A DNA stretch of 12,065 nt. Source: a virus. Taxonomy: Duplodnaviria > Heunggongvirae > Uroviricota > Caudoviricetes. Both the position numbers and the translations under genes were made by a program. Each line of letters opens with the position of its first letter. Within the stretch, counting starts at the first letter, position 1. Below the pieces are notes generated by a model. It made no database searches and was not told where the DNA came from. It worked only from the letters and a program-made list of their open reading frames with translations. Location of the stretch: the IMG/VR virus record IMGVR_UViG_2579778856_000001; one strand, 5' to 3'. Positions 2,649 through 7,090 of this stretch are shown one piece after another.

Positions 2649-2846
2649 ATGAACACCAACCGTATTTTGCGTAAAAAAGAGGTACTTCATCTGACGGGGA
2701 ACTCGTCAGCGACGTTGTACCGACTCATCTCGAAAGGATTCTTTCCTTTGTCAAAGAGGCTAACGGGCGACAATGGCCGGGCGGTAGGCTGGCTGGAGAG
2801 TGATATCAATAACTGGGTTAACAGCCGTATGCAGGCGGGAGAATGA
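2649..2846 (+). CDS. alpA: AlpA-family (Vis/excisionase-like) helix-turn-helix transcriptional regulator
   Basis: 65 aa, SD AAGGAG at 2636-2641. RILRKKEVLHLTG-x-S-x-ATLYRLI...FP...G-x-RAVGWLESDINNWV aligns with the recalled E. coli CP4-57 AlpA (RILRLPAVIQKTGMARATIYDWL...FPKKRMLGVKSVGWIEAEIDEWL). Confidence 0.8.
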   Translation: MNTNRILRKKEVLHLTGNSSATLYRLISKGFFPLSKRLTGDNGRAVGWLESDINNWVNSRMQAGE

Positions 2847-3402: not shown

Positions 3403-4257
3403 ATGAACGATTCTTATTACTTCAGAACATCTGACCCGGATTACATTCGTCACGCACCGTCAATGCTTGAGATTTTAAGTAAAGCATTCCCCACTATTAT
3501 TACCCAGCAGGAAAGTGAGTATGAACTGCAGCGTCTTAACCATTTACTAAATAAACTGAAAGGCAGCAATCGCTGCTACAACATCATTGCTCAAAAACTA
3601 AGGCAGTGCAGAAACGGATCTCCATGCAACAGTCTTATATGCCCGCATTGCCAGCGGGAACGCATTCTGGCGCAACTGGCTATGTTGCATGTCTTGCCGG
3701 GGAATTCAGCAGAATACGTGGGAGTGGTCCTGTTTTTCAACAAGGATACGCAAACTCCGCCGCCATGGAAGAACATTGGGGCGCTCAGGGCGCAAATCGG
3801 TCGTTATAAGCAGAGGATAAGCCGGGTACTTAACCGCCTGGGGTACGCCGGTCCGGCCACAGGCACCTTCAGTATGATGCGACATATGCCTGATGGCCCA
3901 GAAGAGCGTATTTTCTGGGTTCCACAGTTGTGTTTGTTCCTGCCCAATGACAGTACGTTGATTAAGGGGCTAAAAGCGCATATGTCGCGAAGTGGTGGGG
4001 CATTCATTGATGCATCGACGCTTAACACACCAGTGATCGTGCTCAGGTATAAAGATCCCGCGAGACTGATTTCATGCGCCCTGAATCCAGTCTGGCACAC
4101 AGCAGATTACACACTGACTGATAAAGACGCTCTTGTTAAGTCAAGAATGGAGCTACTGAAAGGCCGGACACTGTTAAAAAGTCTGCTTACCCTGGACTCA
4201 CTCGGAACAGGTGTCGTTTCTTTTTCGTTTGGGCAACCCCCAGGGAAAGTGCACTGA
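3403..4257 (+). CDS. Hypothetical protein (284 aa) with zinc-ribbon-like Cys4 cluster (C-x5-C-x4-C-x2-C)
   Basis: ATG 3403 with AGGA 7 nt upstream. Cys cluster CRNGSPCNSLICPHC at residues 69-83 (nt 3607-3651). No family assignable by eye. Confidence 0.65.
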   Translation: MNDSYYFRTSDPDYIRHAPSMLEILSKAFPTIITQQESEYELQRLNHLLNKLKGSNRCYNIIAQKLRQCRNGSPCNSLICPHCQRERILAQLAMLHVLPGNSAEYVGVVLFFNKDTQTPPPWKNIGALRAQIGRYKQRISRVLNRLGYAGPATGTFSMMRHMPDGPEERIFWVPQLCLFLPNDSTLIKGLKAHMSRSGGAFIDASTLNTPVIVLRYKDPARLISCALNPVWHTADYTLTDKDALVKSRMELLKGRTLLKSLLTLDSLGTGVVSFSFGQPPGKVH

Positions 4258-4269
4258 TTTACCGGTAAT

Positions 4270-4370
4270 GCAGCAACTGCAATGCACTTTTGCTGTTGAT
4301 TAAATTGCAGTGGAACGACGAATAACAGCGGCAACCACTGCATTTTCGTTGTTGTAAAACTGCAAAGCTT
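4270..4370. repeat. Iteron-like repeat cluster: four copies of ACTGCA(A/T) (one inverted), an 8-bp perfect inverted repeat, and ATGCACTTT twice
   Basis: ACTGCAA at 4276-4282, inverted copy at 4305-4311, ACTGCAT at 4337-4343, ACTGCAA at 4359-4365. IR TGCAGTGG 4306-4313 / CCACTGCA 4335-4342. ATGCACTTT at 4282-4290 and again at 4393-4401. Confidence 0.4.
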
Positions 4371-4519
4371 GCCAGTGATTTTGATGGCGCTGATGCACTT
4401 TAACATTCCAACTGTCTCGATTTTAACGCAACCGTCTGTTTTCTGCAGGGGCTCACGGATGCCTCTGCACACCCGATCCTTACCATCAACTGACGAGTTA
4501 GCGCATCTGTGAGGGCTTT

Positions 4520-4833
4520 CTGTGTTTCTGTCAGTGAATATTCTACACACAATGGGGGGAGCGGTCAGCGAGCACCATTGCCATTGAGCGCAACGGAGAG
4601 CTTGGGGACATGCAGCACTACGGAGGCTTCATCTCCTTCTCATGTCATTAAACGATACGGCGAACGAGCGCAGCGAGTGAGGGAAGGCGTCAGCCTGAAC
4701 AGGGGGAAAGATTTGCGACCGGAGTGGAGCAAATCATGGGCGGAGCCCATCCTCGCGACTGGGGTTTTGACTTTCGAATTGCCCAGCGTTGAGTTTGGTT
4801 AATGTAGTGAGACGAGGATGCTGAGAGGGGACC
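4520..4833 (+). other. Purine/G-rich non-coding segment; candidate structured 5' leader or small RNA upstream of the polymerase-like gene
   Basis: No ATG-initiated ORF of plausible codon usage. The only track ORF here (4509-4802) starts with GTG and is rich in rare codons (AGG, CGA, GGG). Runs such as GGGGGGAGCGG, GAGGGAAGGCG, ACAGGGGGAAAG. Tight hairpin ATGGGC-GGA-GCCCAT at 4736-4750. Confidence 0.25.
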
Positions 4834-6231
4834 GTGAGTACTGAAAAGGATTATCCAGTGAAGATCCCTAAGTGGGTTTATGACCGTATTACTGAAATAA
4901 CGGATTATGTCGTGGGGGATACGCAATGGGCTGTTACCCGGCGGCAGACAGTACGGTGGTTCCTGGCTCACATATGGCTGGAAACAGACGATGATGGCTG
5001 GACTATATGCACTGTCCGGGATATCCGTAGCAGCTATGCCAGTCTCCTGGGACAGTGTGAAATTAGTTACCAGGGGGAGTGCTTTATGTCCACGCTAACT
5101 GATTTCCTGCCGACACTTTCGGATATTGAATTTCGTGCAGGAAAAGCGAGCAAAGACCCGGAAAAGCGTAGAGCCAGTGCATGGCGGTTCAACCCCCTGC
5201 TGCCTGTGTGTGATGAGTCTGCCAGGGGTAAGTTAAATCTGGTTGACTTGGATACTGGTGAGTCTGTTAGTTTTAGAGCTCTGCTTCAGGGGAACGGGAA
5301 AGCTCCTGGGCATGCGATAGATGTAGAGAAACGCCAGACGGCCCTAAAACAAACGGAAAAGGACTTCTTGGCCAAAGTTGGGCGGGGGCGCATGAGTATA
5401 CAGTTTGTGAAGGAATTGCGTAGCCGTGAGCCGGATCACTATTACCGCGCAGGAATACGCAGCCTTAACCATCTCTACAATGGCAGGATTGAGGGACAAT
5501 ATGTCACTTACGACCATCATTATCGTCTGACGTTTGGAGGGCGGTATTATGATCAAGCTTTCCAGAATCTGCCCAATGAGTTCAAAGCTAAATTTCGGAC
5601 CGGGTTACTCAACTATGACATCGAAGCGTGCAATCTGGCCTGTCTGAACCATCTGTTCAGACAGTATGACGTCGATTATCGTGTGAAGTCATCGATATAT
5701 AAAACCATGATGGAACATACCGGGCTGACCCGTAAACAGTGCAAACAGATGGTCCATACCACCACCTACAGAATTGGGCGTGTGACTATTGGTGTTAATG
5801 ATGGCCTTGGGGCAAAAGTGTATGGATGGTGCGGTAACAGCAAAAAAAAGGCGCTAAAGATTTTGCGTTGGTGGAACCGTTATATCAGTCCATTGAAATC
5901 TGCGCTTGAGTCATTGCTGGAACGTGTGCATGGCGCACACCGCAAGAGTTGTTCATCACCGCGTAACTATCACAGGTACGCTAATGAAGTCGGATTAATA
6001 CTGGATCTTAATAGTGAGGTGTATCAGCGTGAAAAGACTCACCATCATCAATATGCGCGGAATAAGGCACTGTTGGCGTTTATGATCTGTGGTGTGGAGC
6101 AGGCGTATATCCGTGAGGTTGTCAGTATGAACCCTGGTCGTGTCTGCATGCTGGATCATGATGGGGTAGTGGCAACGGGCGCGCTTTCACTACCGGACTG
6201 GCGTGGTTTCACGATGAAAGTGAAGGACTAG
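4834..6231 (+). CDS. Uncharacterised protein (465 aa) with family-A / T7-like single-subunit polymerase motifs A, B (O-helix) and C; putative minimal right-hand polymerase
   Basis: GTG start at 4834 with SD GAGAGGGGA immediately upstream and in-frame stop at 4822-4824. Motif A-like NYDIEACNLACLNHL (res 260-274; compare Pol I DYSQIELRIMAHL). O-helix-like RKQCKQMVHTTTY (R300, K304, H308, Y312; compare Pol I R754-K758-F762-Y766). Motif C-like CMLDHDGVV (res 438-446; compare Pol I MQVHDELV). A-to-B and B-to-C spacing (about 42 and 137 aa) resembles Klenow and T7 DNA polymerase. Motif-level inference only. Confidence 0.65.
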   Translation: MSTEKDYPVKIPKWVYDRITEITDYVVGDTQWAVTRRQTVRWFLAHIWLETDDDGWTICTVRDIRSSYASLLGQCEISYQGECFMSTLTDFLPTLSDIEFRAGKASKDPEKRRASAWRFNPLLPVCDESARGKLNLVDLDTGESVSFRALLQGNGKAPGHAIDVEKRQTALKQTEKDFLAKVGRGRMSIQFVKELRSREPDHYYRAGIRSLNHLYNGRIEGQYVTYDHHYRLTFGGRYYDQAFQNLPNEFKAKFRTGLLNYDIEACNLACLNHLFRQYDVDYRVKSSIYKTMMEHTGLTRKQCKQMVHTTTYRIGRVTIGVNDGLGAKVYGWCGNSKKKALKILRWWNRYISPLKSALESLLERVHGAHRKSCSSPRNYHRYANEVGLILDLNSEVYQREKTHHHQYARNKALLAFMICGVEQAYIREVVSMNPGRVCMLDHDGVVATGALSLPDWRGFTMKVKD

Positions 6232-6355: not shown

Positions 6356-7090
6356 TGTGAGTTCAACGGGTCGATGCAACGCTGTCCCTAATCAAGGGGG
6401 ACGTTGCCATGAAACGAAGAACTCGTATTAACTACACGCCAGAGCAAAAGGTGATTATTTGGGACAGATATAAGCAAGGTGATTCCCTGCATGATATCCC
6501 CCAGAATGTTCGACAGATTTCACTCTACTATCATGCCTACAATCCACCAGGCCGGTGGCTACCGTCCTCCCGTGCGAAAGCGGCACCGGTTAGCGTTTTC
6601 GCTTGATGAAAAAGAGGAGATATCCAGAGGACTGGTAGCAAAACGCATCATCAGGGACATCGCTGCTAAATTATCAATAGCTCCCTCAACGATTAGCCGC
6701 GAGATCAGGAGGCACGGCGGTGCAAAACAATACCGTGCAGCAAAAGCCGATCCTGCTGCGTGGGAAAATGCTCTGAGACCAAAACCTTGCAAGCTAATTG
6801 AAAGCCCCACATTGTGTAAAATCATTGCAGAGAAGATGCATCAGGACTGGTCGCCGGAACAAATTGGCGGTTGGCTAAAACGCTGTTATCCCGATAATCA
6901 GGAAATGCATGTGTCACATGAAATGATTTATAAAACGCTTTTTATACCAACCCGGGGAGCTTTAAAAAAAGAGCTGCAGCAATGCCTCAGAAGCGGAAGA
7001 GTAGTGCGTAGATCCAAAACCTCATCACTTAAAGTAAACAGAGATACATTCTGGTCACGAATGCCCGGTTGTTCGTGCTTTGCGTTTTAA
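6356..7090 (+). mobile_element. IS30-family insertion sequence remnant (left inverted repeat plus 5' part of the transposase gene; 3' half deleted)
   Basis: Left end TGTGAGTTCAACGGGTCGATGCAAC at 6356-6380 resembles the recalled IS30 IRL (TGTAGATTCAATTGGTCAACGCAAC). Transposase ORF begins 53 bp inside. Element ends abruptly; no right repeat before the membrane protein gene. Confidence 0.7.
6409..7090 (+). pseudogene. IS30-family transposase, frameshifted near 6498-6502 and truncated (N-terminal HTH region only, DDE domain missing)
   Basis: Track ORFs 6409-6606 and 6479-7090 are consecutive pieces of one IS30-like transposase in two frames. MKRRTRINYTPEQKVIIWDRYKQGDSLHDI then, in the other frame, FDRFHSTIMP...RKRHRLAFSLDEKEEISRGL...APSTISREIRRHGG...KPCKL...WSPEQIGGWL...EMIYKTLF. 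Frame switch coincides with a C5 run. Product about 200 aa versus about 380 for intact IS30 transposase. Confidence 0.75.

Follow-up and report, generated by a model that had tools for sequence, protein, structure and literature searches.

The DNA stretch analysed here (12,065 nt, IMG/VR virus record IMGVR_UViG_2579778856_000001; hereafter the window) contains a long gap, positions 4258-4833, which is the free stretch between an open reading frame (ORF) for a 284-aa protein (3403-4257) and an ORF for a 465-aa protein (4834-6231). The strongest signal of this region is an almost invariant, single-copy box with the run of G residues that follows it (4537-4559), a feature missing from the initial annotation of the window. 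It lies upstream of the gene for the 465-aa protein, whose modelled fold is that of a family-A polymerase. We tentatively read the gap as a bipartite control or initiation region of the core module of an integrative island, in which the box would be the polymerase's own start site, whether a promoter or a priming origin, followed by a structured leader; we consider this quite possible, if not yet probable. The length of the gap, remarked on in the initial annotation, was confirmed by the flanking ORFs and by RefSeq, which lists no features inside the gap in genomes of Escherichia coli sequence type 131 (ST131) that are 100% identical to the window there.

We collected 24 related loci by genome, metagenome and exact-protein look-ups (L numbers below are our labels for individual loci). 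Homologues of the 465-aa protein (45-100% identical) came from Enterobacterales only. Group A, which includes the window and loci of Cedecea, Yersinia, Serratia, Edaphovirga, Budvicia and Pectobacterium, runs from alpA through a homologue of the 284-aa protein (285-300 aa) and a 500-700-bp gap to the polymerase-like gene. In group B (L009, L011, L012, L015, L017, L047 and L048) alpA is directly followed by a gap of 345-460 bp and then by the polymerase-like gene. The box and G-run were present exactly once in all 24 loci, always on the plus strand and 188-372 nt upstream of the polymerase-like gene, and they are the sole part that groups A and B share, the downstream non-coding parts being different. 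Across 17 distinct sequences the consensus of the box is at...cTaCaCA..AT, then 4-7 G; in the window it occupies 4537..4553 on the plus strand, as an AT-rich stretch followed by CTACACACAAT. Since box and G-run stay the same while leaders, repeat arrays and proteins diverge, the simplest account of them is a recognition and start site of the polymerase itself. That there is one box per island and no other replication gene favours a priming or origin role, and the strict co-orientation of the box with the gene that it precedes also allows autogenous transcription. A metagenome pattern scan returned mostly near-identical copies and chance matches.

Conservation in the 3' part of the gap is concentrated in two blocks. 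Block 1 (4537-4590), made up of the box, the putative start at the G-run and the remainder of the block (4554..4590, plus strand, GGGGGGAGCGGTCAGCGAGCACCATTGCCATTGAGC), is 85-96% identical in pairwise comparisons with other loci, and block 2 (4657-4755, plus strand), which contains three hairpins supported by pairing counts, is 75-94% identical. In the same loci the polymerase and upstream genes are 68-77% identical as DNA and 40-60% as protein, the polymerase genes of the loci compared for block 1 showing 71-76% nucleotide identity; the remaining gap sequence, at 62-75%, lies at the background of the alignment method. Alignments place a variable insert of ~20-75 nt, depending on the locus, between the blocks (4591..4656 in the window, plus strand) and, after block 2, a variable tail (4756..4833, plus strand) with a purine-rich ribosome-binding stretch before GTG 4834. 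Distant homologues start not at the position of GTG 4834 but at that of a second GTG, at 4858 (MKIPKW..., with AAGGA before it); if the polymerase-like gene in fact begins there, 24 nt downstream, as it may, the gap would be 600 bp long. The motif GAGCG-N(1-3)-AGCGAG occurs in both blocks, at 4560-4575 (GAGCGGTCAGCGAGC) and 4666-4682 (GAGCGCAGCGAGTGAG), and may be a repeated recognition element within the leader.

The initial annotation had regarded the 3' half of the gap as non-coding, and comparison of the related loci bears this out. The only sizeable plus-strand ORF, of 97 aa at 4509-4802, is broken or frame-shifted in the close relatives L002, L032, L020 and L030. G-runs have 5 to 7 G, a 13-nt deletion occurs in L020, and the middle segment changes in length (~20-75 nt). 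Which frame is open varies by locus, and L008 has stops in all three. The 3' part is non-coding and under selection at the nucleotide level. In some Yersinia and Serratia loci (L005 and L006, 5701-6000) the polymerase frame happens to be open for ~300 nt upstream; gene callers there predict proteins of 521-556 aa (P0055, P0064), whose N-terminal 60-90 residues come from the non-coding element and are an annotation artefact.

The box bears what appears from its sequence to be a moderately strong resemblance to promoters of the T7 group. The window has ATATTCTACACACAAT with start GGGGGGAGCG, L005 has ATTGACTACACACTAT with start GGGGGGGAGCG and L011 has TTTTACTACTCACTAT with start GGGGCC; the T7 consensus promoter is TAATACGACTCACTATA with start GGGAGA. 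When the sequences are aligned on CAC(T/A)AT, seven of the nine invariant or nearly invariant positions are those of T7 (-12 C, -10 A, -9 C, -7 C, -6 A, -3 A and -2 T), and L011 matches the T7 consensus at 13 of 17 positions. Positions -11 and -8, both specificity positions of T7, differ from it in nearly all variants. We built a position weight matrix from 17 annotated T7 promoters; scored with it, the window's box came 3rd out of 24,086 positions, while the box took first place in L011 and L045 and second in L004 and L020, the scans of these five best-ranked loci covering 12-27 thousand positions each.

Several other identities for the box and its surroundings were considered and rejected. 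Its only match to a sigma-70 consensus is on the minus strand (4568 to 4540), and the hexamers, as read from the alignment, are lost in L005, L008 and L009. In the window it is one mismatch away from the DnaA box TTWTNCACA, but the TTW start is not conserved elsewhere and such sites occur at chance level. The exact box was found in none of 2.9 million viral contigs and no viral contig carried several copies, and we dropped the idea that it is the promoter of a known phage because no contig has multiple boxes. A mimic of a phage packaging site (cos/pac) was set aside after blastn against 50,697 phage records returned no match at E up to 1, an intrinsic terminator at 4751-4764 was a single weak consensus match, no more than chance would give, and no tRNA or tmRNA was found.

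The gene that follows the box (4834..6231, plus strand) encodes a minimal family-A polymerase-like protein that is unannotated and whose N-terminal region is winged-helix-like. An AlphaFold model made with 23 homologues has a predicted local distance difference test score (pLDDT) of 72 overall and of at least 83 for residues 270-430, and has the palm-and-fingers fold of family-A polymerases; Foldseek comparison with PDB returned family-A DNA polymerases only. The N-terminal part gave winged-helix matches. The initial annotation's description of the downstream gene as polymerase-like is thus borne out by the fold. Pfam, including DNA_pol_A and RNA_pol, had no match for the protein or for 30 remote relatives. 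The PDB sequence search gave no polymerase match for the single sequence; with the family profile, family-A DNA polymerases came up, but no better than chance (E about 1). An exhaustive profile search found ~50 remote relatives of 430-600 aa which share the C-terminal domain, all of them devoid of Pfam domains. By reading the alignment against the known Klenow and T7 motifs, we assigned a GGR(L/Y)(F/Y)..(L/F)QN(L/C)P motif like the TGRLSS..NLQNIP of Klenow, the invariant Asp262 in (N/D)YD(I/L) as motif A, Lys304 with Tyr312 eight residues on as motif B, and an invariant (E/Q/D)HDG, preceded by LAH.IQG.E, as motif C. D262, K304, Y312, H442-D443, R237 and Q244 are invariant or nearly so among the 23 close and 30 remote relatives.

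Pol I enzymes have a Glu at the steric-gate position that excludes ribonucleotides. Five residues after the motif A Asp (Klenow numbering) the present family has N, S or C and the remote relatives Q or H, with no Glu, which on sequence grounds would be compatible with the use of ribonucleotides. The motif B helix and the helix before motif C are separated by a conserved beta-hairpin (377-391), in which N384 is nearly invariant, and we infer from the order of secondary structures in the model that it may occupy the topological position of the T7 RNA polymerase specificity loop. Remote homologues annotated as hypothetical (24% identity, catalytic half) are encoded by jumbo phages of ~265 kb that infect Erwinia and Dickeya; that of Erwinia phage pEa_SNUABM_46 is preceded by a non-coding stretch of 386 bp (L057, 1757-2142) with no obvious T7-like box.

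Downstream of the start, the group A alignment (14 sequences) supports three small plus-strand hairpins in block 2: hairpin 1 at 4685-4696 (AGGC/GCCU), hairpin 2 at 4710-4735 ((G/A)AUUUGC/GCAAAU(C/U), GATTTGC/GCAAATC in the window), whose closing pair changes from G-C to A-U in six of the 14 sequences, and hairpin 3 at 4736-4750 (ATGGGC/GCCCAT), with a flanking pair that changes from U-A to G-U. The last is the hairpin ATGGGC-GGA-GCCCAT of the initial annotation, found exactly where it had been placed. In the alignment 96.6% of cells are paired, compared with 31-40% when the partners are slid. Five pairs change on both sides, a number reached by 4 of 500 shuffles, and the covariation score was reached by none of 500, although most hairpin pairs never vary and the covariation support is thin. 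The comparative alignment which the initial annotation had proposed as a check for compensatory changes therefore yielded a few of them, in these three hairpins across divergent loci. On the complementary strand these G-U pairs would read as A-C mismatches, so the folding strand is the plus strand. A closing stem around the three hairpins (GUGAGG/CCUCGC) was dropped, as it is not kept in L045 and L046. The leader of group B is different, with a hairpin that begins at the G-run and an extended hairpin of ~30 bp, and folds with z -4.2 on the plus strand and -3.0 on the minus strand. Group B also has TACTACAC, which resembles the pMV158 nick site, TACTACGAC; the likeness was set aside, since group A does not have the sequence.

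The 5' part of the gap holds a phased array of six AAANTGCA half-sites in alternating orientation (4246..4401, no strand assigned), which its repeat coordinates and its recurrence in relatives mark as a candidate operator or iteron array. The half-sites are at 4246-4253, 4302-4309 and 4357-4364 on the plus strand and at 4283-4290, 4339-4346 and 4394-4401 on the minus strand, the first of them sitting in the last codons of the 284-aa ORF. Their spacing is 37, 37 and 37 bp within pairs and 56 and 55 bp between pairs, so that the TGCA cores follow one another at 22-23 or 33 bp and lie on the same side of the helix. The four ACTGCA(A/T) heptamers that the initial annotation called iteron-like do exist (4276, 4337 and 4359 on the plus strand, 4305 on the minus strand), but the true unit is the 8-bp half-site. 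The heptamer itself is not above chance in the window (6 sites, 4.5 expected); its clustering is, four of the six sites falling within the 90 bp of 4276-4365. Also as initially annotated, there is a perfect 8-bp inverted repeat (ACTGCAAT at 4276-4283 with ATTGCAGT at 4304-4311) and a duplicated ATGCACTTT (4282 and 4393; two copies, 0.15 expected).

The pattern TGCANTTT-N10-AAANTGCA-N29-TGCANTTT recurs in L004, L005, L008 and L014, and in part in L020, although between its sites the sequence has diverged. It is missing from six of the seven group B loci, and L011 has a different palindrome, CACTGCAAA, as well as TTTGCAGTGCCAAA-N6-TTTGGCACTGCAAA. All group B loci have a palindrome, TTCCATTTTTAAAAATGGAA, just after alpA; in L009, L011, L012, L015 and L017 it is perfect and AT-rich, a conserved ACACTAAC..TTGAAT comes after it, and these take the place of the AAANTGCA array. 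In the gap we found no AT-rich unwinding element (lowest GC 0.40 in 60-nt windows) and one DnaA-box-like site, the window as a whole showing no enrichment of such sites (23, with 20.7 expected); a consensus scan detected no plus-strand sigma-70 promoter. With none of these signals present, a multi-site operator is as good a description as an iteron origin. Of the two functions suggested initially, iteron origin or multi-site operator, what stands is therefore the phased multi-site array, and the origin-type signals are what it does not show.

The gene upstream of the gap (3403..4257, plus strand), which encodes the 284-aa Cys-cluster protein, is found only in loci that carry the AAANTGCA array. 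On this co-occurrence its product is the likeliest candidate for a factor that binds the array. Homologues in L005, L006 and L008 are 40-42% identical. The protein has an invariant C-x5-C-x4-C-x2-C cluster (CRNxxPCxSxxCxHC). The predicted beta-alpha-beta-beta-alpha-beta core is reminiscent of Rep/HUH or RNA-recognition-motif-like folds, the structure model being unusable (pLDDT 41). At 4240-4257 the window and its 92%-identical variants L002 and L004 differ by 1 nt in a C-run (CCCCC and CCCC), a deletion in the variants which shifts the end of the 284-aa ORF; the shift adds 32 residues across the repeat array and leads to a 'hypothetical protein' annotated under the first 100 bp of the gap.

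We infer from these observations the following course of events. The array at 4246-4401 would bind a DNA-binding protein encoded by the island, its role being that of an operator or of a loading array similar to iterons. The segment 4537-4755 would be the cognate cis site of the downstream 465-aa family-A polymerase, with the box (AT-rich stretch, CTACACAYWAT) positioning the enzyme for de novo initiation at the G-run (4554-4559). The first product would then be the conserved G/A-rich segment with its three small hairpins, possibly as RNA, and it could prime replication of the excised island, whether as a primer or as an R-loop, could be an autogenous leader of the polymerase mRNA, or could do both. 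A bolder version, which we consider doubtful, would make the 465-aa protein the smallest known single-subunit promoter-specific nucleic-acid polymerase, derived from Pol I and initiating de novo at its own T7-like box, as a host-independent switch for replication priming or expression; more radically still, it might copy the leader RNA into DNA, as a family-A analogue of a retron.

A number of observations weigh against the proposal that the box is the polymerase's own start site. The window itself matches the T7 consensus at only 10 of 17 positions, and outside the five best-ranked loci the box ranks 5th to 58th with the T7 matrix (L008 30th, L014 58th). The matrix test is also post hoc, as the likeness was noticed first, and the matrix is narrow, so that the resemblance, moderately strong as it is, is unproven. 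There is one box per island, whereas a phage-type RNA polymerase normally serves many promoters. The nearest folds to the 465-aa protein are those of Pol nu, Pol theta and Pol I, ahead of T7-type RNA polymerases, and hhalign detected no similarity to T7 RNA polymerase (probability 0.1). No helicase or single-stranded DNA-binding partner is conserved beside the polymerase-like gene. Several loci have the downstream cargo oriented against the gene, on the opposite strand, so that driving cargo expression cannot be the general role of the box. As for the leader, that of the window folds no better than shuffled sequence (z -0.4 over 288 nt, -1.3 for block 2). The initial annotation had seen in this part a structured RNA or 5' untranslated region (UTR) of the polymerase-like gene; the conserved cis element and its three kept hairpins agree with that, while the z-score does not, and neither does the covariance-model scan that was to check it, since Rfam has no match at gathering score in the window and only chance-level matches at E up to 10 for the window, L005 and L012. 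The G/A richness noted there is likewise real but modest (59% purine and a GC skew of +0.24 over 4554-4833), and the G skew is absent from the distant loci of group B. Overall, the initial interpretation of the gap is partly supported.

Other explanations of the same data have to be weighed. It seems unlikely to us that the gap is an ordinary long 5' UTR, with host RNA polymerase starting at about 4400-4415 under the AAANTGCA operator, the blocks forming a structured leader through which the polymerase mRNA is regulated in its translation, stability or processing, and the box kept for a reason at the RNA level. Such a promoter could use a -10-like TTTAAAAT/TTTAAC, which shares sequence with the last half-site and is also present in L004, L005 and L008, and the conserved hairpins with their plus-strand G-U pairs, the strongly structured group B leader (z -4.2) and the co-orientation of element and gene in every locus all fit a leader. 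However, the consensus scan shows no plus-strand sigma-70 promoter, there is no Rfam match, and the best-conserved stretch, box and G-run, is largely unpaired in the group A consensus fold; moreover, it is the box alone that is common to groups with different leaders, which would be unexpected if the fold were what matters. We give a distinctly smaller chance to an origin that functions at the DNA level only, in which array and blocks would be sites of binding and unwinding, used by the 284-aa protein, by the polymerase's N-terminal domain or by both, with priming by the host and no specific transcript. The phased, iteron-like repeats and the position of a single-copy element beside the only replication-type gene of the island are what such an origin would look like, and the putative origin of SCCmec (staphylococcal cassette chromosome mec) is a conserved, repeat-bearing intergenic region (PMC7581432). 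Set against it are the missing AT-rich unwinding element and DnaA-box enrichment, the group B loci that keep box and polymerase without the repeat array, and the G-U-compatible hairpins, which favour one folding strand.

An arrangement like that of retrons or of defence-associated reverse transcriptases (DRT), in which the structured RNA would be a cofactor, template or primer of the family-A polymerase and a DNA product would serve defence or the biology of the island, strikes us as improbable. The layout is indeed similar, a conserved non-coding element of 150-250 nt upstream of, and co-oriented with, a polymerase gene on a defence-rich island; the group B RNA is strongly structured, and in the fold comparison Pol nu and Pol theta come first, the latter an enzyme known to copy RNA. 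Yet the gene is a fixed core beside alpA and not variable cargo, the PADLOC search was empty, no reverse-transcriptase motifs were found, covariation support is thin, and the DNA box is constant while the RNA parts differ between groups. The resemblance of the box to T7-group promoters and the defence cargo of the island could also mean that it is a decoy or sensor promoter, read by the RNA polymerase of an infecting T7-like phage and switching on the island gene during infection. This is very improbable, as the element is unmatched in the 50,697 phage records, no viral contig has several boxes, and the T7 specificity positions -11 and -8 differ in nearly all variants. We attach next to no weight to a missed gene, either the 97-aa ORF at 4509-4802 or an N-terminal extension of the polymerase. 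Such open frames do exist, in the window and for 300 nt upstream of the polymerase in L005 and L006 (P0055, P0064), but they are not the same across loci and end in L008 in stops in every frame; the ORF has no family match, the G-run varies (5-7 G), L020 has the 13-nt deletion, and the insert changes in length.

The window belongs to an integrative island of the E. coli ST131 type, with integrase, AlpA, RadC and DUF2787. Chromosomes of E. coli ST131 and its relatives are 100% identical to it over 3 kb around the gap, a stretch that is carried by ~590 of 5,426 complete E. coli genomes. RefSeq annotates DUF2787, RadC, a tyrosine integrase and an AlpA regulator around the gap, besides several hypothetical proteins, and a Pfam scan of the window proteins confirmed RadC, integrase and AlpA, leaving the 171-aa, 284-aa and 465-aa proteins all without a match. 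Searches of PHROGs, NCBIfam, PADLOC and PDB sequences likewise found nothing for the 284-aa or 465-aa proteins. The alpA-type regulator or excisionase gene (2649..2846, plus strand; Pfam Phage_AlpA, E 2.6e-12) heads a string of co-oriented genes that ends in the polymerase gene, and an AlpA gene lies upstream of the polymerase-like gene wherever the called genes reach far enough upstream. A plasmid derivation was rejected, the only plasmid matches being two E. coli records identical to the chromosome sequence.

Between array and box lies a poorly conserved spacer (4402..4536, plus strand, delimited by alignment conservation), into which ISEc52 has inserted between 4475 and 4476 in some ST131 genomes, as shown by split matches (query position 218/219) and by annotation of the insertion sequence (IS). 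In most ST131-type genomes the module is broken by ISEc52 (see L001 8492-9661 and L003 1823-2992), either in the 465-aa gene or in the gap at this site, so the intact copy of the window, which has no ISEc52, is the less common state. A truncated IS30-like transposase remnant (HTH_38/HTH_32) lies at 6479-7090, between the polymerase-like gene and the DUF2339 and DUF3999 genes, and given this remnant the present island copy may no longer have its original cargo. Downstream of the polymerase-like gene, the genes of both groups vary by locus and are defence genes (type I restriction-modification, SIR2, DUF4365, methyltransferases), so that the polymerase-like gene is the last core gene ahead of variable defence cargo. 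The cargo slot of L011, L012, L015, L017, L020, L045, L047 and L048 also holds DUF3644 or DUF4365 and a pair of helix-turn-helix and M78 peptidase genes, and L011 has a Gabija-like OLD/UvrD pair at its other end. The slot resembles a hotspot for defence genes in an undescribed family of islands.

If the pairing of polymerase and box is real, it would be a new and very compact polymerase and recognition-site system on widespread enterobacterial islands that shuttle anti-phage defence genes, those of pandemic E. coli ST131 included. It would explain how islands with an integrase and AlpA but no recognisable replication gene replicate after excision or are switched on, it would add to the few family-A enzymes with de novo initiation (T7-type RNA polymerases and SCCmec CCPol-MP), and it might offer synthetic biology an orthogonal pair of mini-polymerase and promoter. 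Annotators gain a conserved non-coding marker and a protein family that lie outside the Pfam, NCBIfam, PHROG, PADLOC and Rfam models.

Comparison with described systems shows which parts have precedents. Promoters of T7-type RNA polymerases double as replication origins both in T7, where phi1.1A/B is the primary origin, and in mitochondria, at the light-strand promoter (LSP). The present element resembles the T7 group, as far as the moderately strong likeness of its sequence goes, in an AT-rich upstream part, a core that matches at most of the conserved positions of -12..-2 and a G-run at the putative start, and it has a right-hand palm-and-fingers polymerase of the same superfamily encoded beside the box, with a steric-gate residue other than Glu. 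It differs in the size of the enzyme (465 aa, T7 RNA polymerase having 883 aa), which is structurally nearer to DNA Pol I, theta and nu and has no detectable sequence similarity to the T7 enzyme, and in having one box per element and other residues at -11 and -8. Iteron origins and multi-operator regions such as phage OR/OL likewise have short repeated sites on one helix face upstream of a replication-type gene, but the sites here are inverted 8-bp half-sites, not direct iterons of 17-22 bp, and come with no unwinding element or DnaA-box cluster. The locus is like retron msr-msd and DRT non-coding RNAs in that, among many defence genes, a polymerase gene is immediately preceded by a non-coding element that is conserved, structured and in the same orientation; unlike them, it has no reverse transcriptase and no Rfam or PADLOC match, and its gene is part of the island core rather than cargo.

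The other relevant systems are mobile elements with polymerases of their own. We know of no described pipolin counterpart of the conserved upstream non-coding element. Pipolins, as outlined in PMC11551731, are integrative elements with a primer-independent family-B polymerase and defence genes; on that outline they resemble the present islands in having an unusual, self-encoded and possibly self-priming polymerase as the hallmark of an integrative island with exchangeable defence cargo, the polymerase here being of family A. In SCCmec, the A-family primase-polymerase CCPol-MP preferentially starts de novo in a conserved intergenic region with inverted and direct repeats, which is taken to be the origin (Bebel et al. 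2020, PMC7581432), and the replication module consists of CCPol, MP and the Cch2 helicase (PMC7581432; Rice 2023, PMC10061031). Both are integrative elements that encode a truncated A-family polymerase and have a conserved, repeat-bearing intergenic region beside the operon. Here, however, there is no conserved oligonucleotide-binding (OB)-fold partner or helicase beside the gene, which is followed by variable defence cargo and has no Pfam family match; the hosts are Enterobacterales and not Bacillota, and the site is upstream of the gene and phage-promoter-like. A full-text literature search found no paper on the protein family, on the element, or on enterobacterial islands of the AlpA type that carry a polymerase of family A. 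That a mobile element can have a polymerase with its cognate start site is a known concept; the enzyme lineage, its size, the promoter-like box and the leader are not described in the literature searched.

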